DNA of 64,000 bases from Chloroflexota bacterium (GTDB lineage: Bacteria > Chloroflexota > Dehalococcoidia > SM23-28-2 > RBG-16-64-32), in NCBI GenBank assembly GCA_037441345.1, contig JBBISJ010000006.1, positions 3,530 to 67,529 of the forward strand, in the 5' to 3' direction. This document shows, one piece after another, positions 11,658 to 34,613 of the stretch (position 1 is its first letter; each line of letters opens with the position of its first letter). Below the pieces are notes generated by a model. That model saw only the letters and a list, made by a program, of their open reading frames with translations, did not search any database and was not told the DNA's origin. Both the position numbers and the translations under genes were made by a program.

Positions 11658-12015
11658 TGGTGGAGACGGAGGGGAATTGAACCCCTCGTCCAGAAGAAAC
11701 CCGGCCTGGATGTCCTACAAGCTTAGCCGTCGCTTTGATCTTGCCCGCCGTACCGCCGTCGGCCACGTAACCGGCAGGCCAGCCGATGGTCTTTTGTCCC
11801 CCTTATCGGCGTGGGGAGGACAGCACCCCGACATTACGTCGCCGGACTCCGCCCATCGGGGTGAGGCCTGAGCCAGGCGTCGCTAGCCTAAATTAGGCGG
11901 CGAGAGCGTACTGGTTAGTGTTGCCAGTTGCTTTTGCGCCGGTCGATTAACGAGGATCCGGCGTCCTCGGCTTGCAATCCGGGCCCAACTTTCCCTGTCG
12001 AACCCTTGCGTCCCC
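11658..12015 (-). ncRNA. ssrA: tmRNA (SsrA), about 358 nt; tag reading frame ends ...NQYALAA-UAA
   Basis: 5' GGGGACGCAAGGGUUCGACAGGG and 3' GGGGUUCAAUUCCCCUCCGUCUCCACCA (tRNA-like acceptor and T-arm); tag codons GGC AAC ACU AAC CAG UAC GCU CUC GCC GCC UAA at 11893..11925 (- strand). Confidence 0.85.
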
Positions 12016-12615: not shown

Positions 12616-13074
12616 TCAGCCCCTGCGTCTCACCGCCCTCTGCATCGCCCGCTCTGCCTCGCGCTTCGCTATGTCCTGGCGCTTGTCGTACTTCCGTTTC
12701 CCGCGGGCCAGCGCGATCTCGAGCTTGGCGCGTCCGTTCTTGAGGTAGAGACGCAGGGGGATGATCGCAGCTCCGGACGTCGTCGCTTCACGTTCCAGGT
12801 CGTGGATCTCACGCTTGTGCAGCAGTAGCGGCCGACTCCGGGTCGGCTCGTGGTTCATACGGCTCGCCGGGGCGTAGTGGGCGATGTGCGCCCCGACCAG
12901 AAACATCTCGCCGTCCCCTGGACGGATATAAGCCTCGCGGATGCTCGCGTGGCCCTGCCGTATCGACTTGATCTCCGTTCCCGTCAGGGAAAGGCCTGCT
13001 TCCAGCGTACGCAGGATAGCGTAGTCAAACCCCGCCCGGCGGTTGGTCGCGACGGTTTTCTCGCCCGCGTTCAC
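12616..13074 (-). CDS. smpB: SsrA-binding protein SmpB
   Basis: N-terminal motif NRRAGFDYAILRTLEAGLSLTGTEIKSIRQG and a C-terminal basic tail. Confidence 0.9.
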   Translation of the reverse strand: MNAGEKTVATNRRAGFDYAILRTLEAGLSLTGTEIKSIRQGHASIREAYIRPGDGEMFLVGAHIAHYAPASRMNHEPTRSRPLLLHKREIHDLEREATTSGAAIIPLRLYLKNGRAKLEIALARGKRKYDKRQDIAKREAERAMQRAVRRRG

Positions 13075-19013: not shown

Positions 19014-21794
19014 TCAGGCCCTCGCTACGTCGACCGCTATTCCCCGGTCGATCGGAACCGGCTGAAGTTGCATCAGCCAGTAGCGCAGGTGGCCGTATCC
19101 GCCGGCCAGGTGGAGCCATTTGACCATGCCCGGTTCGCTGTTCGTCGGGTCGTCCCACTTCTCGAACTGGTAGGGCTCCCAGCCGTTGTACATGATGAGT
19201 TGGCCCGGCCGGACCGACGGCGAGATCTTGGCAGTGCAGATGTACGAAGACACGTCGTTGAACACGCGCACTTTGCCGCCGTTCTCGATACCGCGCACTT
19301 CCGCGTCCCGCGGGCTCAGCATGACCGACGGCTCTCCCCTGTGCGTCTGGAGCATCAGCGGGTTTACTGAGTTGGCCGAGTGAACGGTCCAGCGCGAATG
19401 CCCGCTCGTCATCGTTAGCGGGTGATCGCCCCCCTGCCTGGGATTCGGCTTGTGCACAGGCAACTGCTCGTTCGCTTCCAGGAACCAGTCGTGGTCGATG
19501 TAGAACTGCGCACGCCTGGTTAGCGTTGGGTACGGCATCTTCTTCTCTGTGTGCCAGCGGAAAGGGTTGTGCGTGCTGTCCGGCGCCAGGTCCGATGCCT
19601 GGGCGAGGGCGAAGGGCACGGCGCCCCAGTTCGTGAAGCGGACGATCCCCTTCTCCTTCATCTTCGCCAGGTCCGTATCGGCGGGGATGTTGCCGAATGC
19701 CGCCGTGTCCTTGATCCACTCGTCGGCCAGCTTCACCGGGGTATCGATCGCGCCTCCCTTGGTGAACTTCTCGACGAGCGCGTCCAGCCGGTGCACGCCG
19801 CCGCGCGCGTCCTTGCACTCGACGAAGTCTCGCGCCTTCGCCCGCTCCTCGATCTTCGCCGCAAGCAGCTTGAAGATCTCGAACTCGGGCTTCGCCTCGC
19901 CGGGCGGCGGCACCGCCTCGTCGGAGAACGTCAGGTTCATGATGTCCGGCGTCGGGATGTGGAACGTCAGCTTCTCGTAGCTCAGGGCCACCGGCAGGAC
20001 GAAGTCGGACCACATCGCCGTCGTCTGCATGCGCCAGTCCACGGTGACGATCATCTTGAGCTTCGGCCAGAGGTTCTCGATAGCCAGTTTCTGCCCGCCC
20101 CGGAGCCGCCGCAAGAAGTTGCCACCCACCTCGAACAGTACGCGCGGGGGATTGTCCGGACCCGGCCGGTCAAGGCCCATCCACCAGCCCTTGCCGAGCG
20201 CCTCCTTGAACCGTGAATCGAAGCCCTCGCCGATCGCAGGGTCGTTCCACGCCGCCTGGTTCCAGCGATCCCGTAAGCCGCAGTGGTAGTACCAGAGGAA
20301 CGCCGGCGGCACGGTGTTGCCAATTGGCGCCGCCATGCGCATCAGCTCGATCGAGGCCATCTCGTCAGTCATCTCGGGGTCCTGGGCCTTGATCGCGGTG
20401 GCCATCATGTTGCGCATCGTGAGGACGCGCGTCGCCTCCTCCGTGCCTGCCGTGTTCTTCATCGACGAAAGGTAAGCCCCGTCGAACATTCCCACCGACC
20501 AACTGCGTGTTCCTGTACCCTTCTTCCCCCAGTTGCCCGTCAGCCCCAACAGCAGGCACATCGAACGCTCGATCAGGTCGCCGTGGTAGTACTTGCCGGC
20601 GTTGAAGCCGAGGAGGATGTTGGTGCGCTTCGCCGCTACCTTGCGGGCCAGCGAGCGGATCATCGCGGCATCCGCGCCGCAGAGCGCCGCCGCCTTCTCC
20701 GGCGTGTACTCAGCTTCCAGCAGCTCCTTCAACAACGCGTACGCCGGCGCGACCTCCACGCTGCTCCCATCCGCCAGCGTCGCCTGGAACCGACCTTCAA
20801 GCGCAGGCTCAGCGCCACCCGTGTCCAGCGTCCCCCGCGGCGCGGGGACAACAGCGCCTGACTTCGCGTCGTACCAGTAGAACTGGTCGATCCGAGCGCC
20901 CTCGGCGACCTCCGGCCCGCGGAGAAAGCGCTTCGTGTCCGTGCGCACGAGCAGCGGCAGATCGGTCTGCTCGCACACGAACCGGCGGTCGATCAGCCCT
21001 TCCTCGGCGATCACCTGGCACATGCCGAGCGCCAGCGCCGCGTCGCTCCCCGGCTCGACCGTCAGATGGTAGTCGGCGTGGATCGCTGAGGGGCTGTAGT
21101 CCGGCGCAATCGTCACGACCTCGCCGCCGTTGTACCGCGACTCGAGCACGAAGTGGTACCAGGGAATCGACGTGTACGCCGGATTCCGGTGCCAGACCAG
21201 CGTCAGCTCCGCGTGGAACCAGTCGTCGACGCTGCTGGCCGAGTTCACCTTCCCGTACGTTATGTAGAGTCCCGGATTGAAGTCGTTGATGTCGGCGTTC
21301 ACGTCCGTGGTCGTCCCGCCCAGCCCCTCGATCAGAGGACCCATCAGCATCCCCGCCATCAGACCGCCCTCGTTCGGCGTCGCTACGTGCAGCACCGAGT
21401 CCGGGCCGTACTCCTGGATCGCGTCCAGCGTCGTGTCTGCGATCTCGGTCAGCGCCTGGTCCCAGGAGACTCGCTCCCAGCTGCCGCCGCCGCGCTCGCC
21501 CGCGCGCTTCATCGGGTACAGCACTCGCTCGGGGCTTTGGAGCATCCGGCTCCAGGCGCTCCCCTTCTGGCAGCCCATCGGATTCATGTCCGGTACGCCG
21601 TCCTCGATCACCGGGAAGACCCCTGCCGGCTCCTCGCCGACAACCTGGCCATCCTTCACAAAGACGCGGTACACGCAGTTGCCCGGGTAGCAGTTGATGC
21701 AGTGGCTGGCGAACGCGGTCTTCTCCCACGTCCACCGGGTGCCGTACCGCTCACCGGCCGGACGGCCCGTCGGCGCTTTCGATCCGTTGCCCAT
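19014..21794 (-). CDS. molybdopterin (bis-MGD) oxidoreductase catalytic subunit, NarG-like (type II DMSO-reductase family), cytoplasmic, function unknown
   Basis: FS0 motif HCINCYPGNC...NPMGCQKGSAWS (matches the NarG His-x3-Cys...GCxxGxSxSW pattern); 926 aa from the ATG with a GGAGGT SD; no twin-arginine signal. Confidence 0.7.
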   Translation of the reverse strand: MGNGSKAPTGRPAGERYGTRWTWEKTAFASHCINCYPGNCVYRVFVKDGQVVGEEPAGVFPVIEDGVPDMNPMGCQKGSAWSRMLQSPERVLYPMKRAGERGGGSWERVSWDQALTEIADTTLDAIQEYGPDSVLHVATPNEGGLMAGMLMGPLIEGLGGTTTDVNADINDFNPGLYITYGKVNSASSVDDWFHAELTLVWHRNPAYTSIPWYHFVLESRYNGGEVVTIAPDYSPSAIHADYHLTVEPGSDAALALGMCQVIAEEGLIDRRFVCEQTDLPLLVRTDTKRFLRGPEVAEGARIDQFYWYDAKSGAVVPAPRGTLDTGGAEPALEGRFQATLADGSSVEVAPAYALLKELLEAEYTPEKAAALCGADAAMIRSLARKVAAKRTNILLGFNAGKYYHGDLIERSMCLLLGLTGNWGKKGTGTRSWSVGMFDGAYLSSMKNTAGTEEATRVLTMRNMMATAIKAQDPEMTDEMASIELMRMAAPIGNTVPPAFLWYYHCGLRDRWNQAAWNDPAIGEGFDSRFKEALGKGWWMGLDRPGPDNPPRVLFEVGGNFLRRLRGGQKLAIENLWPKLKMIVTVDWRMQTTAMWSDFVLPVALSYEKLTFHIPTPDIMNLTFSDEAVPPPGEAKPEFEIFKLLAAKIEERAKARDFVECKDARGGVHRLDALVEKFTKGGAIDTPVKLADEWIKDTAAFGNIPADTDLAKMKEKGIVRFTNWGAVPFALAQASDLAPDSTHNPFRWHTEKKMPYPTLTRRAQFYIDHDWFLEANEQLPVHKPNPRQGGDHPLTMTSGHSRWTVHSANSVNPLMLQTHRGEPSVMLSPRDAEVRGIENGGKVRVFNDVSSYICTAKISPSVRPGQLIMYNGWEPYQFEKWDDPTNSEPGMVKWLHLAGGYGHLRYWLMQLQPVPIDRGIAVDVARA

Positions 21795-21986
21795 GGTTAC
21801 CTCCAGGGTTTTGTGTGCGGGTACCGCGCCCTGAAGGGCACGGCATAGCCGGGGCGCACAACGCGCCATCCTGCCCCGATTGTCCGCGACTCCAGCGGCA
21901 ACGTAAGTCAGGCGGCATCCCCGGATTCCTGTCAGGTTCTCGCCCACGGGCGCAGGGTGATCACCATCAGTTGCAGGCACAAATGA

Positions 21987-25894: not shown

Positions 25895-25971
25895 GGGCGA
25901 TTAGCTCAGTTGGTTAGAGCGCAGCGTTGACATCGCTGAGGTCGTAGGTTCAAATCCTACATCGCCCACCA
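25895..25971 (+). tRNA. tRNA-Val (anticodon GAC)
   Basis: GGGCGAT acceptor paired with ATCGCCC, D-arm GCTCAGTTGGTTAGAGC, anticodon loop TTGACAT, T-arm GGTTCAAATCC, CCA encoded. Confidence 0.85.
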
Positions 25972-26218
25972 CGAATTGAACATCACAGGCGACGACCGGG
26001 ACGAGTAGCCACGGCAAGGTCACCAGGGAAGCGAGCCACGACTGAAAGCGAGCCGGCCCCCTGCCACGGCGAAAACCACCCGCGAGCCGGCCGCCAACCC
26101 GTCAGACGAAGGCCGGACTTCAGCCCGGCAATCTGGCGTCAGGCGGCCCCGGAGGCACCCGTTACCGGCCGAATGAGCCCCCGCGACAGCGGGAGGAAGC
26201 TGGGTGGAACCACGGTAA

Positions 26219-26255
26219 CCCCCGTCCCACAATCGGGATGGGGGCTTCTCTTTTT
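26219..26255 (+). terminator. intrinsic terminator (CCCCCGTCCC-ACAATC-GGGATGGGGG + CTTCTCTTTTT)
   Basis: 10-bp GC stem followed by a U-rich tract; about 250 nt downstream of tRNA-Val with no convincing ORF in between. Confidence 0.65.
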
Positions 26256-26313
26256 CGAGGGGGGCCACTCTCCGTAGCGGAAGGATTCAGCCTTCCACGG
26301 AAGCCGAAAATAA

Positions 26314-26556
26314 ATGAGCGAGAAGAAAGCGAGCGTCATCACCGACAACAGCCTGGGCATGCTCGTCCTGCGCGCCTGGCTCTGGCTCGTCCCCATCGCG
26401 ATGCTGCTGGCGGCGCTCGGCTTCGGCGCTTATGCCGCCGCGGACGCCCGCTGGGCGCTGTTCGGCATCATGGTCGTGATGGCGTTCGTCGCGGTCGGCC
26501 TCCTCGCCTTTCACTGGTGGATCCTCTACCGCTTCGGCAAGGAACCGCCGCCGTGA
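26314..26556 (+). CDS. small membrane protein (2 TM), hypothetical
   Basis: 80 aa with two hydrophobic helices; its stop overlaps the next small ORF start (GTGA). Confidence 0.4.
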   Translation: MSEKKASVITDNSLGMLVLRAWLWLVPIAMLLAALGFGAYAAADARWALFGIMVVMAFVAVGLLAFHWWILYRFGKEPPP

Positions 26557-26885
26557 AGCTCCTCTACCGCTGGCTCGGCGCCGAGATCGTCTTCGTCCAC
26601 GTCGGCCACGGCCTCGTCGGCGTCGGCATCATCGCGGTTCTCGCGGTCAGCATCCCGTGGTGGTTCACGCTCGCGCTGACGCCCCTGATCGCCTTCTCCC
26701 TCGCCTTCTGGCTGAAGGAGTCGCAGTTCGTGATGCCCGTCGCCCGCCGCTACCTGTCCGGCAACCCGCATCCGGAAGGAAACTGGATATCGGGGATTGG
26801 CGACGGGCCCGATACCAACACCCCCATTCCCCATTTCCTATCTCCCGCCGACTCCCCCCACCGACCACCGGACACCAACCACTAA
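26553..26885 (+). CDS. small membrane protein (2-3 TM), hypothetical, GTG start
   Basis: VKLLYRWLGAEIVFVHVGHGLVGVGIIAVLAVSIPWWFTLALTPLIAFSLAFWL; ends 10 nt before thrS. Confidence 0.4.
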   Translation: MKLLYRWLGAEIVFVHVGHGLVGVGIIAVLAVSIPWWFTLALTPLIAFSLAFWLKESQFVMPVARRYLSGNPHPEGNWISGIGDGPDTNTPIPHFLSPADSPHRPPDTNH

Positions 26886-26894
26886 AGGAGCCAC

Positions 26895-28652
26895 ATGCCT
26901 GACCTCCAATCCCTCCCCAAAGACGAGCGCCTCGAGCGCATGCGTCACTCCGCCGCCCACATTATGGCCGAGGCCGTCCTCGAGATGTTCCCCGAGGCGA
27001 AGCTCGGCATCGGGCCGCCCATCGACACCGGCTTCTACTACGACTTCGACCTCCCCCGCGCGCTCTCAACCGACGACCTGCCGGAGATCGAGGAGCGCAT
27101 GCGCCGGCGCATCGAGTCCGACGCGGCGTTCCAGCCGTCCACCATCACCAGGGACGAGGCTCGCGCCATGTTCGCCGACCAGCCGTACAAGATCGAGCTG
27201 ATCGACGAGATCCCCGAGGACGAGGAGATCGGCCTCTACCGCCAGGGCGAGTTCGTCGACCTCTGCCACGGCCCCCACGTCAGCACCTGCGGCCAGGTGC
27301 CGGCCTTCAAGCTCATGTCCGTCGCCGGCGCCTACTGGCGCGGCAGCGAGGACCGGCCGATGCTCCAGCGCATCTACGGCGCCCTCTTCGACACGCAGGA
27401 GGAGCTGGACGAGTACCTCCACAACCTGGAGGAAGCGCAGCGCCGCGACCACCGCCGCCTCGGCCGGGAACTCGACCTCTTCTCCTTCCACGAGGACTTC
27501 GGCCCCGGCCTCGTCTACTGGCACCCAAAGGGCGGCCGCGTCCGCACGATCATCGAGGACTTCTGGCGCCGCGCCCACTTCGACGCCGGCTACGACCTCG
27601 TCTACACGCCCCACATCGGGAAGTCCACGCTCTGGCAGACGAGCGGCCACCTGGACTTCTACAACGAGAACATGTACTCGGCGATGGATATCGACGGGCA
27701 GGACTACTACGTCAAGCCGATGAACTGCCCCTTCCACATCCAGATCTACAAGAGCGACGTCCGCAGCTACCGCGACCTCCCTATCCGCATGGGCGAGCTC
27801 GGCACCGTCTACCGCTACGAGCGCTCCGGCGTCCTCCACGGCCTCCTGCGCGTCCGTGGCTTCACCCAGGACGACGCCCACATCTTCTGCCGCCCGGACC
27901 AGGTCCGCTCGGAGGTCGAGCGCTGTGTCGACTTCATGATGTTCTTCCTCGGAGCCTTCGGCTTCGAGAAGTTCCACGTTTACCTCTCCACCCGCGACCA
28001 GGCCGGCAAGTGGGCCGGCTCGCTCGAGGACTGGGACATGGCGACGAACACCCTCCGCGACGTGATCGAGGACCGCAAGCTGCCCTACGACGTCGACGAG
28101 GGCGGCGCGGTCTTCTACGGGCCCAAGATCGACGTCAAGATGATCGACGCCATCGGCCGCGAGTGGCAGTGCACCACCATCCAGTTCGACTTCAACCTGC
28201 CGGAGCGGTTCGACGTCAGCTTCATCGGCGAGGAAGGCTCGCGGCAGCGGCCGTTCATGGTCCACCGGGCACTGCTCGGCTCCATCGAGCGCTTCTTCGG
28301 CGTGCTCGTCGAGCACTACGCCGGCGCCTTCCCGATGTGGCTCGCGCCCGTCCAGGCGTCCGTCATCCCCATCGCCGACCGCCACATCCCCTACGCCGAC
28401 GAGGTCGCCGCCGAGCTGCGGGCCGCCGGCCTGCGCGCCGAGGTCGACGCCCGCAACGAGCGGATGCAGGCCAAGATCCGCGACGCCCAGCTCCAGAAGG
28501 TGCCGTACATGCTCGTTGTCGGCGACCGCGAGGCCGAGGCCCGCGCCGCCGCCGTCCGCCTCCGCTCAGGCGAGGACCTGAAGGCCCTGCCCGTGACGGA
28601 GATCATCGCCCGCATGCAGGCCGAGGCCGCCGTCCAGGAGTTCCGGGCCTAA
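26895..28652 (+). CDS. thrS: threonine--tRNA ligase (short form lacking the N-terminal TGS domain)
   Basis: editing-domain HSAAHIMAEAV, class II motifs (FRYERSGVLHGLLRVRGFTQDDAHIF) and the anticodon-binding C-terminus. Confidence 0.9.
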   Translation: MPDLQSLPKDERLERMRHSAAHIMAEAVLEMFPEAKLGIGPPIDTGFYYDFDLPRALSTDDLPEIEERMRRRIESDAAFQPSTITRDEARAMFADQPYKIELIDEIPEDEEIGLYRQGEFVDLCHGPHVSTCGQVPAFKLMSVAGAYWRGSEDRPMLQRIYGALFDTQEELDEYLHNLEEAQRRDHRRLGRELDLFSFHEDFGPGLVYWHPKGGRVRTIIEDFWRRAHFDAGYDLVYTPHIGKSTLWQTSGHLDFYNENMYSAMDIDGQDYYVKPMNCPFHIQIYKSDVRSYRDLPIRMGELGTVYRYERSGVLHGLLRVRGFTQDDAHIFCRPDQVRSEVERCVDFMMFFLGAFGFEKFHVYLSTRDQAGKWAGSLEDWDMATNTLRDVIEDRKLPYDVDEGGAVFYGPKIDVKMIDAIGREWQCTTIQFDFNLPERFDVSFIGEEGSRQRPFMVHRALLGSIERFFGVLVEHYAGAFPMWLAPVQASVIPIADRHIPYADEVAAELRAAGLRAEVDARNERMQAKIRDAQLQKVPYMLVVGDREAEARAAAVRLRSGEDLKALPVTEIIARMQAEAAVQEFRA

Positions 28653-28686: not shown

Positions 28687-29168
28687 CCCATCATGGACCT
28701 CTGTCGAAGCCCTTCAGGCCCGTTGGGGACCGCATTCCGCCCATCCTGAGGACCGCAGCATCTCGAAGGGCCGTCATTCCCGCGCAGGCGCCTGCCCGCC
28801 TTGTGAGGGGGAATCCATGGCTCAATCAGAGGGGATTTATACCCGCCGGTTGATTGTGTTTTCGCGGTCAGGTTCAGTCTTTGATTGTGCCGCGGCTGAA
28901 TAATTGCTTTTCTCGCGACAGGCCGGGCGTTTTGTGTCTGCGGGGCCGGTGAGGAACACCCTCGCTGTTTGATTGCCTCCGATCCATGGGCGTGACCCGG
29001 AGGATTCAATTCGAGCGGCGGTCTTGCTGGGCAGGGAGCATGTGGGCATGAGAGCATCGTAACGGAGGGGCGGGGCGATCTCCGAGGGGGAAGTGGCGCG
29101 GGCGGGTGAACGGGAGCCTGGCCCCGGCGGCCGACCCCACCGTCATTCCGGCGAAAGCCGGAATCCCA

Positions 29169-29330
29169 TCACGTGCCATTGGCGCCTGGTGACTCGTCCG
29201 CATCCTCACCGATAGCCCCCACCCAGGCCCTCGCGGTGCTCCAAACGCGCTTGACCAGGTCGCTCGTCACTCCCGTGTACAGGGTGCCGTTGCGCTTGCT
29301 GGCCATGATGTAGACGAACGGCTGTTTGTC
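29169..29330 (-). pseudogene. GIY-YIG nuclease (UPF0213/YhbQ-like) remnant, frameshifted and truncated
   Basis: PFVYIMASKRNGTLYTGVTSDLVKRVW (GIY...YIG) in frame; the expected continuation EHREGLGGGYR is in the +2 frame and then hits a stop; no ATG start. Confidence 0.45.
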
Positions 29331-29440
29331 CAATGCAGGCCAATCGTCATTGATTCCGGCCCTGCAGGCCCGTTGGGCGTTCGCCGGAACGACGGAATGG
29401 CACGAATAAGCTGAACGGGGTGAGGGCAGCCTGCCGGGTC

Positions 29441-29542
29441 GCTGGCTCCCTGGCTGCTGGCTCCTGGCTCCCGGCTCCCGGCTCCTCGGCTCCTGGCTCC
29501 TGGCTGCTGGCTCCTGGCTGCTGGCTCCTGGCTGCTGGCTCC
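29441..29542. repeat. tandem heptanucleotide repeat (GGCTSCY) x ~14
   Basis: GGCTCCT/GGCTGCT/GGCTCCC units are contiguous; translation of this repeat explains the QQPGASSQEP low-complexity N-terminus of ORF 29169..29597. Confidence 0.85.
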
Positions 29543-29623
29543 TTCCGTTTGATGGCGCCCAAACGCCTGTGCTATTATCCGGACATAGCAGTGACATCAG
29601 CCATTACCAAGGGGAACTAGACT

Positions 29624-30214
29624 ATCGCCCGCGAGCTTCGCACGAACGAGCGGATCCGCGCGCGCGAAGTCCGCGTCATAGGAGCGAACGGGGAAAACTA
29701 CGGCGTTATCCCCTTCTCCGAGGCGATGAACCGGGCCAGGGAAACCGGCCTTGACCTCGTGGAGGTTGATGCCAACGCGAACCCTCCCGTCTGCCGGATA
29801 CTGGACTACGGCAAGTTCAAGTACGACCAGGCGAAGAAGGAGCGCGAGGGACGCAAGCACCAGAAGGGGACGATGATCCACGAGGTGCGCCTCCGCCCCC
29901 GGACGGGACAACATGATATCGACCTGAAGGTACGGATCGCCGGCCGGCTGCTGGCGGAAGGCGACAAGGTGAAGCTCTCCGTCATGTTCAGGGGCCGCGA
30001 GATGTCTCACCCAGAGGTGGGCCAGGAAGTGCTGGACAAGGCGCTGGCCGGGCTTGGAGACCTGGTGAGCGTCGAGAAGCCGCCCGGCATGGAGGGCCGC
30101 TTCCTGACGGTGATCCTGACGCCGAACGCGAAGAAGCCAGTGGCCGCGAAAGCGGCGGTGGTGGAGGCAGCGCCGGAGGCGGAACCAGAGAAGGCAGAGG
30201 AAAAAGTTGGCTAA
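29624..30214 (+). CDS. infC: translation initiation factor IF-3, with a non-AUG (AUC) start
   Basis: ...ERIRAREVRVIGANGENYGVIPFSEAMNRARETGLDLVEV...; an in-frame TAG lies at 29618-29620, so the N-terminal domain must start at ATC 29624, 8 nt after an AAGGGG SD; the first ATG (29726) would delete the N-domain. Confidence 0.75.
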   Translation: MARELRTNERIRAREVRVIGANGENYGVIPFSEAMNRARETGLDLVEVDANANPPVCRILDYGKFKYDQAKKEREGRKHQKGTMIHEVRLRPRTGQHDIDLKVRIAGRLLAEGDKVKLSVMFRGREMSHPEVGQEVLDKALAGLGDLVSVEKPPGMEGRFLTVILTPNAKKPVAAKAAVVEAAPEAEPEKAEEKVG

Positions 30215-30221
30215 ATACAAG

Positions 30222-30410
30222 ATGAAGACACACTCCGGCGCCAAGGGCCGCTTCTGGATTACCGGGAGCGGCAAGATCCTGCGCCGCAAGATCGGGGCCA
30301 ATAACTTCCGCCGCAAGAAGCGCGGCGAGACACTGCGCGATATCTCCGGCAAGGTCGCCGTTTCCCCGCACGTCGTCAAGCGGCTGCGGAAGATGCTGCC
30401 CTACGCCTGA
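30222..30410 (+). CDS. rpmI: 50S ribosomal protein L35
   Basis: MKTHSGAKGRFWITGSGKILRRK...LPYA. Confidence 0.85.
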   Translation: MKTHSGAKGRFWITGSGKILRRKIGANNFRRKKRGETLRDISGKVAVSPHVVKRLRKMLPYA

Positions 30411-30429
30411 CCACGAGGAGTAACGAGAG

Positions 30430-30798
30430 ATGCCACGAGCACGAGGCGGAGTTGTCACTCGCCGCCGGCACAAGAAGATCATCAAGCAGGCCAAGGGTCA
30501 CAGGGGCGGCCGTCACAAGATATTCAAGCTGGCGAACGAGTCCGTCATGCACGCCCTCCGCTACGCTTACGAGCACCGGCGGGACCGCAAGGGCGACTTC
30601 CGGCGGCTGTGGATCCAGCGGATCAACGCGGCGGCGCGCCTGAACGGCCTGAGCTACTCCCGCCTGATATTCGGCCTCTCAAAGGCCGGCGTGGACGTCG
30701 ACCGCAAGATGCTCGCCGACCTGGCGGTGCGCGACGAGAAGGCGTTCGCGAGCATAGCGAAGACCGCGAAAGACGCGATCGCTGCGCCCGCAGCCTGA
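30430..30798 (+). CDS. rplT: 50S ribosomal protein L20
   Basis: [70 protein letters not shown]. Confidence 0.9.
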
Positions 30799-30871
30799 CA
30801 CAAGCCGACGAGGCCAGGCCGGCGCCTGCAGAGCCAGGCTCTCACGTGAGCTGGTGATTGCTCCGGATGAC

Positions 30872-30946
30872 GGGGCAGTACCTCAAGGGTAGAGGATCAG
30901 TCTTATAAACTGACGGTTGCGGGTTCGAGTCCTGCCTGCCCCACCA
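30872..30946 (+). tRNA. tRNA with anticodon UAU (tRNA-Ile, AUA-decoding type), CCA encoded
   Basis: acceptor GGGGCAG paired with CTGCCCC, D-stem CCTC/GAGG, anticodon stem TCAGT/ACTGA with loop CTTATAA, T-arm GCGGG-TTCGAGT-CCTGC, discriminator A. Confidence 0.7.
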
Positions 30947-30978
30947 GGGACAACTTCGCAGATCGCGGCGCCCGGTTG

Positions 30979-33387
30979 TCAGCCGCGGAGTTCCGCGTCC
31001 ACTTCCCGCTTGAGCCGCTCGACGATGCGGCTCCGCTGCTTCGCCACGTCGGCATCCTGGAGCGTCCGGTCGGACGCCTGGAAGCTGACCGCGAACGCCA
31101 GGGACTTGCGCCCCGGCGGAATCGGATCGCCCGTGTACACGTCGAAGATCCGCGCGGACGCCACGAGCGGGAACGAGCGGATGATCGCCAGCAGCCGGCC
31201 GGCGGGAACGTCCGCGGGAACGATCACGGCGATGTCCTGCTCGACCGCGGGATACGGCGACAGCGGCTGGAAGTGGGTTGCGCCGGACACATGCGGGAGT
31301 AGCGACTCAATATCCAGTTCAAACATCGCCGCCGGCGCGTCTATGTCGAAGCTCGCAAGTACGCGCGGGTGGACCTCTCCCACCGTGCCGACCCGCTCGC
31401 CGCCGACGCAGACATGAGCCGTCCTGCCCGGCAGATACGCGAAATCGTGCGCTTCCATGTATTCGGCGGCCACGCCGAGGCCGTCCAGCACGAACTCCAT
31501 GCCGGCTTTCGCGTCGAAGAAGCCCGCGAAGTCGCCCGACGGCGCTCCCCACCGGTCCGGAGCGCGCCCGCTAACGACGCCGCACAGCGTCTCAACTTCG
31601 CGGGGCAGATCGTCCTCCCGGGGGATGTACACGCGCGCCACTTCGAACAGCGCCACCCGGTCCGGCGCGGCCCGGACGTTGGAGGCCAGCGCCTGGAGCA
31701 AGGCGTGCCGCAGCGTGGTGCGGGCATACTCGTGCTGGCGGCTGAGCGGATTGGCGAGCCGCAGCGGTGGGCTGACGGCGAGGTCCTCGGCTGGCAGCAC
31801 TCGCCCCAGGCTCTCCATGTCTGTCATCGAATAGGAAATAATCTCCTGCATCCCGGCGCCCGCCGCCAGATCCCTCACGCGTTCGCGCAGGTCCCGCGCC
31901 GGCTGGGGCACGTGGTCCGGGATCGCCCCGGAAAGGAGGCTCGTCGGCAACTCGTCGTAGCCCAGGATCCGCGCCACTTCCTCGATAACGTCGTCGGCAA
32001 TCGCCACATCGGTCCGCCAGTACGGCACCCTGACGATGAAGTGGTCCGGAGGCATCCAGCGGCAGCCAAAGCCGAGCGAGCCGAGTATGCGGCGCACTTC
32101 GGTTGTCGCGATGTCGATCCCCAGCACGCGGGTCAGTCGCTCCATCGTGACCGCGATCCGGTGCTCTTTCTCCTTGCGGGGGTAGACGTCGATCAGTCCC
32201 TGGAGCGCGCGGCCGCCCGCAAGTTCCACCATCAGCTTCACCGCGCGCGCGGCAGCGATCGGCGGCAGTTGCCGGCTCAACCCCTTCTCGAACCGCGTCG
32301 AGGCATCGGTCCTGAGCTTTAGCGCCTGGCTCGTCCGGCGGATGCTCGGGCCGCTGAAATTCGCCGCCTCCAGGAGGACGGTCCGCGTCTCGCCCGTCAC
32401 TTCGCTATCGCCGCCGCCCATCACACCGGCCACCGCCGTGGGTCCGTCCCCGTCACAGATCAAGAGCATCCCGGGCGCCAGGTCATGCTTGCTGCCGTCG
32501 AGGAGCGTGATCTGTTCGCCCGGAACAGACCGCCGCACGACGATCTTCTTGCCCCGCACCCTGTGGTAGTCGAAGGCGTGCAGTGGCTGCCCCACCTCCA
32601 GCATCACGTAGTTGGTGATGTCCACGATGTTGTTGATCGGCCGCATCCCCGCCGCGAGCAGCCTCTCCTGCATCCACTGCGGCGATGCTTCCACCTTCAC
32701 GTCTTCGATGATCGCGCCGACGTAGCGGTGGCAGAGGTCCGGGTCAGCGATCTCGACTTTCGCGAGCGTTGACGCTGCTTTCCTGCCCTCGGCGTACTCG
32801 ATCGACGGATCGCGCACGGCCTGGCCGGTCAGCGCTGCAACCTCCCGCGCAATGCCCAGAACGGAGAGCCAGTCCGGCCGGTTCGCCGTGACTTCGATCT
32901 CGAGGATGGTATCCCCGATGACCGAGCGCAGCGGCGCGCCGATCGGGGCGTCATCCGGCAGCACCAGGATTCCCGTGTGCTCGTCTGACAGGCCTAGCTC
33001 CTTTTCAGAGCAAATCATCCCCTGCGACTCCACACCGCGGATCCGGGCGGCTTTCAGAACCGCCGGCTTCCCGGTGTGCCCATCGATGAGGCTGGCCCCG
33101 ATGCCAGCGTACGCGATTTTCTGGCCGGCGCGGACGTTCGGTGCGCCGCAGACGACCTTCGGGTGATCCCCGCCGCCGAGATCGACAGTGGCCAGGACAA
33201 GTCTGTCGGCGTTTGGATGCGGCTCGACGTTCTCGACGAATCCGACGACGATGCCATCCCACTCCCCGGTGGAGAGCATCTCACTGACCTCAGCGCCGGC
33301 CACGGTGAGCCGCCGGGCGAGCTCCAGCGGCTCGACGGTCAGGTCGACGTAGTCGGCCAGCCAGCTAAGCGGTAACCGCAAAGTCAT
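30979..33387 (-). CDS. pheT: phenylalanine--tRNA ligase beta subunit
   Basis: 802 aa; tRNA-binding, B3/B4, B5 and FDX-ACB domains (e.g. GVMGGGDSEVTGETRTVLLEAANF). Confidence 0.9.
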   Translation of the reverse strand: MTLRLPLSWLADYVDLTVEPLELARRLTVAGAEVSEMLSTGEWDGIVVGFVENVEPHPNADRLVLATVDLGGGDHPKVVCGAPNVRAGQKIAYAGIGASLIDGHTGKPAVLKAARIRGVESQGMICSEKELGLSDEHTGILVLPDDAPIGAPLRSVIGDTILEIEVTANRPDWLSVLGIAREVAALTGQAVRDPSIEYAEGRKAASTLAKVEIADPDLCHRYVGAIIEDVKVEASPQWMQERLLAAGMRPINNIVDITNYVMLEVGQPLHAFDYHRVRGKKIVVRRSVPGEQITLLDGSKHDLAPGMLLICDGDGPTAVAGVMGGGDSEVTGETRTVLLEAANFSGPSIRRTSQALKLRTDASTRFEKGLSRQLPPIAAARAVKLMVELAGGRALQGLIDVYPRKEKEHRIAVTMERLTRVLGIDIATTEVRRILGSLGFGCRWMPPDHFIVRVPYWRTDVAIADDVIEEVARILGYDELPTSLLSGAIPDHVPQPARDLRERVRDLAAGAGMQEIISYSMTDMESLGRVLPAEDLAVSPPLRLANPLSRQHEYARTTLRHALLQALASNVRAAPDRVALFEVARVYIPREDDLPREVETLCGVVSGRAPDRWGAPSGDFAGFFDAKAGMEFVLDGLGVAAEYMEAHDFAYLPGRTAHVCVGGERVGTVGEVHPRVLASFDIDAPAAMFELDIESLLPHVSGATHFQPLSPYPAVEQDIAVIVPADVPAGRLLAIIRSFPLVASARIFDVYTGDPIPPGRKSLAFAVSFQASDRTLQDADVAKQRSRIVERLKREVDAELRG

Positions 33388-33392
33388 TCACC

Positions 33393-34439
33393 TCAGAACT
33401 GGCGCAAAAACCGAATATCGTTCGCGTAGAAATGGCGGATGTCGTCAACGCCGTAGCGCAGCAGGGCGATCCGCTCGATCCCCACGCCGAACGCGAAGCC
33501 CGTGTACCGCTGCGCGTCGTAGCCCATGTTTGTCAGGATCTCGGGGTGGACCATCCCGGCGCCCAGGATCTCGATCCACCCGCCGCCGTGGCACGTCCGG
33601 CATCCGGTCCCGCGGCAGAGGAAGCAGTCAATGCTTACTTCCATTCCTGGTTCAACGAAGGGGAAGTATGAGCAACGGAATGTCACGCGCCTGTCCTGCC
33701 CGAACATCTGCCGCGCGAACTCGGCCAGCGTGCCCTTGAGGTCGGTGAGGCTGATCCCCTCGTCAACGGCCAGACCCTCGATCTGGGTGAGCATCCACTC
33801 ATGCGTGGCATCGGTGGCCTCGAACCGGTAGCACTTCCCGGGGACGACGATGCGGATCGGCGGTTCGTGCGTCTCCATGAACCTCACCTGATTTGGCGAG
33901 GTGTGCGTCCGCAGGAGCATCGGCCGCCGTCCTTCCACCTCGTAGTCGATCCAGAGCGTGTCCCACATGTCTCGCGCCGGGTGGTCCGGCGGGATGCGGA
34001 GAGCCTCGAAGTTGTAGCGGTCCCACTCGACCTCCGGGCCCTCCACCACCTGGAACCCCATCCCCACGAAGATGGCGAGCATATCGCGCGTAGTCTGCGT
34101 TATCGGGTGCAGGCGGCCGCGGGGAAGGGCCGGGCCGGGCAGCGTTACGTCAAGGCGCTCGGACTCGATCACCTCTTCGAGGCGGCGCCTCTCCAGCGCG
34201 TCCAGCCGGAGGGTGTGCTCCTGCTCCAGCAACTCTTTCAGCTCATTGCCCCGGGCGCCGACTGCACGCCGCTGGTCGATAGCGAGCTGCGGAAGCGCTC
34301 GCAGGAGCTGAGTCAGCCGCCCCTTCCGGCCCAGGTACGCGATGCGCCATTCGTCGAGGGCGCCTCGATCGGTTGCAGCACTGAGGTCGCGGAGCGCGTC
34401 GGCCTCGATTGCGGCCAGGGATTCCAGTTCTGTCGTCAT
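33393..34439 (-). CDS. pheS: phenylalanine--tRNA ligase alpha subunit
   Basis: class II motifs (FRCSYFPFVEPGMEVSIDC, GFAFGVGIERIALLRYGV); start taken at MTTELESLAA; a TATAAT -10-like hexamer about 40 nt upstream. Confidence 0.9.
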   Translation of the reverse strand: MTTELESLAAIEADALRDLSAATDRGALDEWRIAYLGRKGRLTQLLRALPQLAIDQRRAVGARGNELKELLEQEHTLRLDALERRRLEEVIESERLDVTLPGPALPRGRLHPITQTTRDMLAIFVGMGFQVVEGPEVEWDRYNFEALRIPPDHPARDMWDTLWIDYEVEGRRPMLLRTHTSPNQVRFMETHEPPIRIVVPGKCYRFEATDATHEWMLTQIEGLAVDEGISLTDLKGTLAEFARQMFGQDRRVTFRCSYFPFVEPGMEVSIDCFLCRGTGCRTCHGGGWIEILGAGMVHPEILTNMGYDAQRYTGFAFGVGIERIALLRYGVDDIRHFYANDIRFLRQF

Positions 34440-34613
34440 AGGAGCAATGCGGATTGCGGCAGGGGCGCGACGGCTATTATAGGTTGGCGTCGCGGCGGGC
34501 GGCAATCGATCAGCAGCCCCCTGCCGGACGCGCGAGCCAGCGCCCGCTTTGTTGACCCCAACGTGGACGCGATGCTAACGTGCCGGTGAGCGCTTACCTT
34601 AGCACTCGTTCAG

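Follow-up and report, generated by a model that had tools for sequence, protein, structure and literature searches.

In the genetic code, the discrimination of AUA from AUG is the one place where a tRNA with a plain U34 risks misreading, and almost all bacteria avoid this problem through the essential enzyme TilS, which provides the minor tRNA-Ile2(CAU) with lysidine so that it reads only AUA. The tilS gene is near-universal in bacteria (PMC3575796), and genome-encoded UAU anticodons are still referred to as rare cases in the literature (PMC3575796; PMC8007984; bioRxiv 10.64898/2026.02.03.703510), in agreement with a sequence-only reading of the gene described here, which had called it rare in bacteria. 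Genes for tRNA-Ile(UAU) are documented in tilS-less species and in a few species carrying tilS, and 371 distinct tDNA-Ile(TAT) sequences had been counted in metagenomes by 2013 (PMC3575796). One described example is tRNA-Ile2(UAU) of Mycoplasma mobile, an otherwise canonical tRNA with an A37 suited to t6A, whose genomic UAU reads AUA as isoleucine; the AT-rich, reduced genome of this species lacks tilS and tRNA-Ile2(CAU), and a changed isoleucyl-tRNA synthetase (IleRS; Arg865) as well as a discriminating ribosome were needed (Taniguchi et al. 2013, PMC3575796). The TilS-independent class of the M. mobile type is defined by the absence of tilS and tRNA-Ile2(CAU), together with an IleRS that is either of the eukaryote type or carries Arg or Lys at the position of E. 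coli Trp905. A different situation is represented by Cyanothece PCC 7424, Ferrimonas balearica and Lactobacillus casei, whose genomes are of ordinary size and contain a sporadic, lineage-restricted extra tRNA(UAU) in co-existence with tilS, so that AUA decoding is thought to be redundant (PMC3575796). Moreover, a laboratory suppressor of tilS in Bacillus subtilis, which carries a G34-to-U point mutation in the resident tRNA-Ile1(GAU), produces a UAU tRNA-Ile that takes over AUA with a normal IleRS and ribosome (PMC3919564; cited in PMC3575796). Finally, tRNA-Ile(UAU) genes are known from the tRNA arrays of phages. Of the bacterial cases that PMC3575796 names, most are AT-rich or live in association with hosts, and each natural bacterium with a UAU tRNA-Ile represents a test case for relaxing the dependence on TilS.

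The gene analyzed here lies in a stretch of 64,000 nucleotides (the window) from an uncultured, Dehalococcoidia-like Chloroflexota bacterium. ARAGORN called a tRNA-Ile with the anticodon tat (Table 1; sequence GGGGCAGTACCTCAAGGGTAGAGGATCAGTCTTATAAACTGACGGTTGCGGGTTCGAGTCCTGCCTGCCCCACCA), which aligned with the full Rfam model RF00005 at 70.2 bits (cut-off 29, E 2.8e-13) with all pairs being standard, and the cloverleaf was both the minimum-energy and the centroid fold in ViennaRNA. By reading the sequence, we assigned an acceptor stem of 7 bp (GGGGCAG/CUGCCCC) with U8 and the discriminator A73, a D stem CCUC/GAGG with a D loop of 7 nt (AAGGGUA), an anticodon stem UCAGU/ACUGA closing the 7-nt loop C32-U33-U34-A35-U36-A37-A38 (CUUAUAA, 30902-30908), a variable loop of 5 nt and the T arm GCGGG-UUCGAGU-CCUGC. 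The tertiary partners U8-A14, A15-U48, G18/G19, U54-A58 and C13-G22-G46 are likewise in place. The single odd feature is the opening of the D stem by C10-G25, a pair that is uncommon at this position in bacteria. The sequence-only reading had described a canonical cloverleaf with a 7-bp acceptor stem, U33, A37 and the anticodon T-A-T, all of which we confirmed: ARAGORN and the Rfam model both put UAU at positions 34-36, and neither indicated another anticodon position or a pseudogene. The gene is therefore a genuine and intact tRNA gene showing no signs of a pseudogene, and its cloverleaf, tertiary nucleotides, U33, U34-A35-U36 and A37 are those of the bacterial tRNA-Ile(UAU) class at the sequence level.

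Table 1. Coordinates of the tRNA-Ile(UAU) gene, its parts and its surroundings in the window.
Feature	Position	Strand	Evidence and remarks
tRNA-Val(gac)	25895-25971		ARAGORN; only other tRNA of the window, 5 kb from tRNA-Ile(UAU)
thrS	26895-28652		First gene of thrS-infC-rpmI-rplT
rpmI	30222-30410		In thrS-infC-rpmI-rplT
rplT (ribosomal protein L20)	30430-30798	+	Pfam PF00453, E 4e-43; last gene of thrS-infC-rpmI-rplT
Direct repeat, left copy GATCGCTGCGCCCG, 14 nt	30777-30790	+	Repeat search; inside the last rplT codons
tRNA-Ile(UAU) gene, 75 nt	30872-30946	+	ARAGORN; Rfam tRNA, 70.2 bits; cloverleaf as MFE fold; identical in two further assemblies
Anticodon T-A-T (U34 A35 U36)	30904-30906	+	Sequence; Infernal alignment to the tRNA model; flanked by C32, U33 and A37, A38
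Encoded CCA of tRNA-Ile(UAU)	30944-30946	+	Sequence
Direct repeat, right copy GATCGCGGCGCCCG, 14 nt	30961-30974	+	Repeat search; between the tRNA and the pheT stop
pheT (PheRS beta subunit)	30979-33387	-	Pfam B3_4, tRNA_synthFbeta, FDX-ACB, B5, tRNA_bind
pheS	33393-34505	-	

The identical 75 bases (75/75) are present in two further assemblies, the NCBI MAG GCA_034434195.1 and the Logan assembly of SRR11582173, whose corresponding contigs share 99.99% and 100% identity with the window and whose PheT proteins are 100% identical to that encoded here. A literature search for papers mentioning the assembly and run accessions returned none. In a set of 185,579 species genomes, MAGs of Chloroflexota/Dehalococcoidia came closest, with PheT identities of at most 68%, and the next-best PheT match in a set of 5.8 billion proteins reached 74%, indicating that the species is rather isolated. 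The G+C content of the window is 65.4%, which does not bear out the 67% assumed for the genome in the sequence-only reading.

The tRNA gene is located at the end of a block of housekeeping genes in the order tRNA-Val(gac), thrS, infC, rpmI, rplT and tRNA-Ile(UAU), followed by the convergent genes pheT and pheS on the minus strand. It starts 73 nt past the stop codon of rplT, and its 3' end is 32 nt away from the stop codon of pheT. Elsewhere, the window contains cellular genes such as mutS/mutL, metE-like genes, smpB with a tmRNA gene, gltX, purB/purC and cofC/cofD, and a Pfam search of most of its likely genes detected no phage genes in the 64 kb. Hence, the setting of the gene is a housekeeping one and not a prophage. 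While the phage genes for tRNA-Ile(UAU) share its anticodon and occur in tRNA arrays, this gene stands singly between rplT and pheT with an encoded CCA end, and its neighbours thrS, infC, rpmI, rplT, pheT and pheS do not include a tRNA cluster.

Because the anticodon is TAT in all three assemblies and not the CAU of a TilS substrate, lysidine is neither needed nor possible in this tRNA, although it would serve for the same job as tRNA-Ile2(CAU), that of a minor tRNA reading only AUA. An origin from tRNA-Ile2 by a C34-to-U change is unsupported, as the tRNA(CAU) genes of Dehalococcoidia relatives, such as the one in locus L140, match it at only about 49 of 72 positions. Regarding its charging, the identity set of E. 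coli IleRS, reportedly established by Nureki in 1994, consists of the anticodon, A37, A38, A73, U12-A23, C29-G41 and C4-G69. Of these elements, A35, U36, A37, A38, A73 and U12-A23 are present, while C4-G69 and C29-G41 are replaced by G4-C69 and A29-U41, with the reservation that the E. coli set need not hold in Chloroflexota. Compared with the lysidine form, a UAU variant is charged about 360-fold less efficiently by E. coli IleRS (PMC3575796), which suggests that an efficient use of the tRNA may need an adapted IleRS.

We counted the isoleucine codons in 55 high-GC3 ORFs of the window comprising 17,948 codons and obtained 55 ATA, 79 ATT and 720 ATC. The sequence-only reading had expected AUA to be very rare in this genome, an expectation that did not hold: ATA accounts for 3.1 per 1000 codons and about 6% of the isoleucine codons, and the closest relatives, which have no tRNA at the rplT-pheT site, use it at 2.7-7.2 per 1000 codons. 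Pooled high-GC Chloroflexota loci showed 1.7 ATA per 1000 codons with a range of 0.26-6.7, so that the value of the window is unexceptional within the clade. Three of the eight isoleucine codons of rplT are ATA and none is ATT, and infC contains one ATA. Because AUA is used equally or more by relatives in which this site has no such tRNA, we rejected tRNA-Ile(UAU) as the cause of a raised AUA use. As a side observation, the rplT genes of the nearest relatives contain 0-1 ATA codons.

We also determined which residues of up to 80 homologues align with the AUA codons of infC, rplT, pheT, pheS and moeA, and found 45% Ile, 32% Leu, 17% Val and 6% Met, a profile indistinguishable from that of the AUU codons (38% Ile, 4% Met). 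Together with the codon counts, this indicates that AUA is in use and stands for isoleucine here, since the ATA codons align with I/L/V positions in the same way as ATT. These values leave very little probability to the view that the tRNA carries another amino acid such as methionine or lysine, or that a modified U34 also reads AUG, with AUA being reassigned or ambiguous. Such a view may draw on the ability of an unmodified or xm5-modified U34 to pair with G and on the binding of AUG as well as AUA by a UAU anticodon on E. coli ribosomes (PMC3575796), but A35, U36 and A73 suit IleRS and neither MetRS, which needs CAU, nor LysRS, which needs U35.

The history of the gene was followed by comparing the rplT-pheT site with those of relatives. 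In all of 80 genome relatives, the 6 kb around pheT were free of a tRNA(UAU). The convergent layout of pheST and rplT is shared by five of these more distant relatives (L123, L125, L126, L152 and L154), and relaxed ARAGORN runs identified neither a tRNA(UAU) nor a remnant of one in their gaps; among these five loci, only the L126 stretch gave a call, namely a 93-nt tRNA-Arg(tct). For the seven closest relatives, whose PheT identities are 71-74%, the gaps after pheT measure 8, 30, 48, 60, 61, 62 and 93 bp and are all devoid of a tRNA; the convergent rplT is kept in six of these, the seventh (P0007) having a different gene downstream. In two of these closest relatives, the pheT-rplT gap (L209, 7403-7463; L210, 7403-7496) contains a different element: a GC-rich hairpin is followed by a T run, likely representing a bidirectional terminator, which has no counterpart in the window. 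Moreover, the tRNA gene is bracketed by the direct repeat GATCGC(T/G)GCGCCCG with 13 of 14 positions matching (Table 1). With 100 nt taken from the upstream and 60 nt from the downstream side, a 13/14 match was reached in 3 out of 3000 Markov simulations and, in the real sequence of the window, at 16 out of 3000 positions, which puts the chance of such a bracketing repeat at about 0.001-0.005. From the tRNA-less gaps of the relatives, the hairpin and T run present instead in L209 and L210 and the bracketing repeat, we read tRNA-Ile(UAU) as an apparently lineage-specific and recent insertion. A simple target-site duplication was rejected as the origin of the repeat, because rplT has no stop codon once one copy and the insert are taken out; better readings of the repeat are microhomology used in an illegitimate insertion, or chance.

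Searches for the source of the tRNA in the sets named below revealed no donor. A pattern of the exact D arm, UAU loop and T loop gave no matches in the 185,579 species genomes, a set in which the own species is absent, and was too strict in having A15 and T20 fixed. A relaxed D-arm pattern, which still required the same D stem, matched six metagenome contigs and one viral contig of 87.8 kb, the latter being one of the six. None of these matches is close, and five of the six contigs have the gene in a tRNA array or among phage-type genes. Altogether, a CCUC/GAGG D stem was seen in seven other tRNA(UAU) genes, located in tRNA arrays (L045/L205, L204, L207 and L208), next to phage-type genes (L206) or on L203, a contig whose shortness precludes a judgement; the phage-type genes near the matches of the relaxed pattern code, for example, for an RNA ligase, a helicase and an amidase. 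The tRNA on the phage-like contig L206 was the closest found, with 57 of 72 identical positions (79%). With a broad pattern, tRNA(UAU) genes proved to be very common in viral contigs among the matches listed, while the anticodon-arm pattern retrieved two unrelated jumbo-phage tRNAs from viral contigs and the pattern of T arm plus acceptor stem none. Searching phage and plasmid records with blastn revealed generic similarities of up to 79% to tRNAs whose annotated or called identity is Met, Lys, Trp, Arg or Gly, and a global comparison with all 699 tRNAs of the fetched loci identified no parent tRNA. Because 79% identity is ordinary between tRNAs, the match to L206 gives no evidence of direct descent, and because the search pattern demanded the CCUC/GAGG D stem, the phage bias of the matches partly mirrors where tRNA(UAU) genes abound. 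A phage may plausibly have been the source of the gene.

These observations bear on the possibility that the gene is a passenger: a foreign tRNA, perhaps of phage origin, which was inserted recently, is inefficiently charged or scarcely used, and is carried along as neutral cargo. Its lineage-specific gain with a direct repeat on both sides would fit such a fate, as would the abundance of tRNA(UAU) genes among the listed viral matches, the location of the seven other tRNA(UAU) genes with this D stem in arrays, phage-type surroundings or a too-short contig, and the absence of the C4-G69 and C29-G41 pairs recognized by an IleRS of the E. coli type. We regard it as quite unlikely, because the cloverleaf and its tertiary nucleotides are perfect, with a score of 70 bits and an encoded CCA end, and because the gene closes an operon of high expression with no phage genes nearby; furthermore, the similarity to L206 is usual between tRNAs and no proof of descent, and the D-stem demand of the pattern accounts in part for the phage bias of its matches.

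For the position of the gene relative to the lysidine pathway, we searched the window and about 14 kb of flanking MAG sequence (about 10 kb to the right and 3.6 kb to the left). Neither tilS nor ileS was detected in the window, using Pfam on most of its likely genes, or in the MAG flanks, and no gene for a CAU tRNA was found in either. The SGGxDS motif of PP-loop proteins did not occur in any frame of the 64 kb or in a protein of the flanks, and a scan of all cellular loci likewise gave no tilS. As these searches cover about 78 kb of a multi-megabase genome, the absence of tilS and a CAU tRNA there says little about the genome as a whole.

Taking these results together, we consider it likely that the gene codes for a chromosomal minor tRNA-Ile with a genome-encoded UAU anticodon, which was gained recently and specifically in this lineage and most likely occurs alongside TilS and tRNA-Ile2(CAU). 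According to this proposal, a piece of about 170 bp bearing the tRNA would have entered the narrow space that separates the converging genes rplT and pheT, where relatives contain a hairpin terminator or almost nothing. Because no promoter-like site of the sigma-70 type and no intrinsic terminator was recognized within 30300-31100, the tRNA is most likely co-transcribed with the rplT operon, forming the 3' end of the thrS-infC-rpmI-rplT transcript from which it would be released by RNase P and 3' trimming. By analogy with the E. coli identity set, the IleRS would recognize A35, U36, (t6)A37, A38, A73 and U12-A23, and U34 would pair with the A of AUA, so that this codon could be read as isoleucine without lysidine. 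The tRNA most likely works beside the ordinary TilS/tRNA-Ile2(CAU) system without replacing it, as the recent gain and the equal use of AUA in tRNA-less relatives make co-existence the parsimonious reading. By comparison with the described systems, the situation thus most likely corresponds to that of Cyanothece, Ferrimonas and L. casei, although these belong to other phyla and the co-existence demonstrated there is deduced here. It resembles M. mobile in its genomic UAU within an otherwise canonical tRNA with A37, but differs in a genome of 65% G+C, a free-living host and a recent gain. Compared to the B. subtilis suppressor, which arose by a point mutation in a resident tRNA-Ile(GAU), we are dealing with a separate gene, brought in by insertion, whose D stem is unusual and for which no resident parent was found.

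Alternatively, TilS and tRNA-Ile2(CAU) may have been lost or may be in the process of being lost, leaving tRNA-Ile(UAU) as the sole decoder of AUA, as in M. mobile, Bifidobacterium and Neorickettsia. Systems without tilS are documented (PMC3575796), a protein with the SGGxDS PP-loop motif and a CAU tRNA are absent from the window as tilS is from its flanks, and highly expressed genes, rplT among them, contain AUA codons. Such a replacement appears unlikely to us: the 78 kb seen are too small a part of the genome for an absence to mean much, the gain is recent, AUA is used equally or more by relatives that lack the tRNA in this position, implying that the ancestral decoder was working, and tilS is close to universal in bacteria. 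We give similarly little credence to the related proposal that a free-living, high-GC Chloroflexota lineage is caught early in a switch of AUA decoding, with a tRNA inserted by microhomology, possibly from a phage, that makes TilS and tRNA-Ile2(CAU) dispensable or has replaced them. If true, the lineage would represent a natural intermediate of the transition proposed for M. mobile.

The tRNA therefore belongs to a rare but already known kind in bacteria and gains added interest from its high-GC host and its clearly recent insertion. While this case alone changes nothing already known, an environmental Chloroflexota lineage of 65% G+C with a recent gain, which is datable against tRNA-less close relatives, would provide useful comparative material for two questions, namely from which source such tRNAs come and whether their arrival precedes the loss of tilS.

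Several minor observations were made in the surroundings of the gene. A sub-threshold match to a T-box leader (25983-26232, plus strand; 36.6 bits vs. a cut-off of 93, E 2e-5) lies directly 3' of tRNA-Val(gac) and 5' of thrS, and an ORF of 215 amino acids without a Pfam match (26238-26885) is placed between this match and thrS. The thrS-infC spacer (28750-29600) is about 1 kb long and contains, on the minus strand, a truncated ORF of the GIY-YIG type (29169-29597, Pfam E 9e-5) as well as hairpin repeats of the GTCATTCC...GGAATC type, and it resembles what is left of a small mobile element. A tandem repeat of about 14 copies of the 7-nt unit CTGGCTC precedes infC (29442-29543); the MAG contig DAOTZW010000078.1 ends within it at about window position 29474, suggesting that the repeat probably breaks short-read assemblies. 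The infC gene itself apparently starts with a non-AUG codon (window 29600-29730), as an in-frame TAG stop codon (29618-29620) stands before ACT ATC GCC..., the sequence coding for the conserved N-terminus of IF3. The sequence AAGGGG is found 9 nt 5' of the ATC at 29624, while the annotated ATG at 29726 removes about 30 residues of the IF3_N domain.

Further away, ARAGORN reported a 101-nt tRNA-Val(cac) within a called protein gene (L217, 6512-6612; L218, 4382-4482), which is probably a false positive. A one-piece tmRNA with the tag peptide GNTNQYALAA (165 bits) adjoins smpB (11658-12015 and 12616-13074, minus strand). Finally, a molybdopterin oxidoreductase of 988 amino acids is encoded in the window (19014-21980, minus strand) and the selA gene for selenocysteine synthase follows in the MAG flank just past its right end (L217, 2070-3434), which together hint at the use of selenoproteins.
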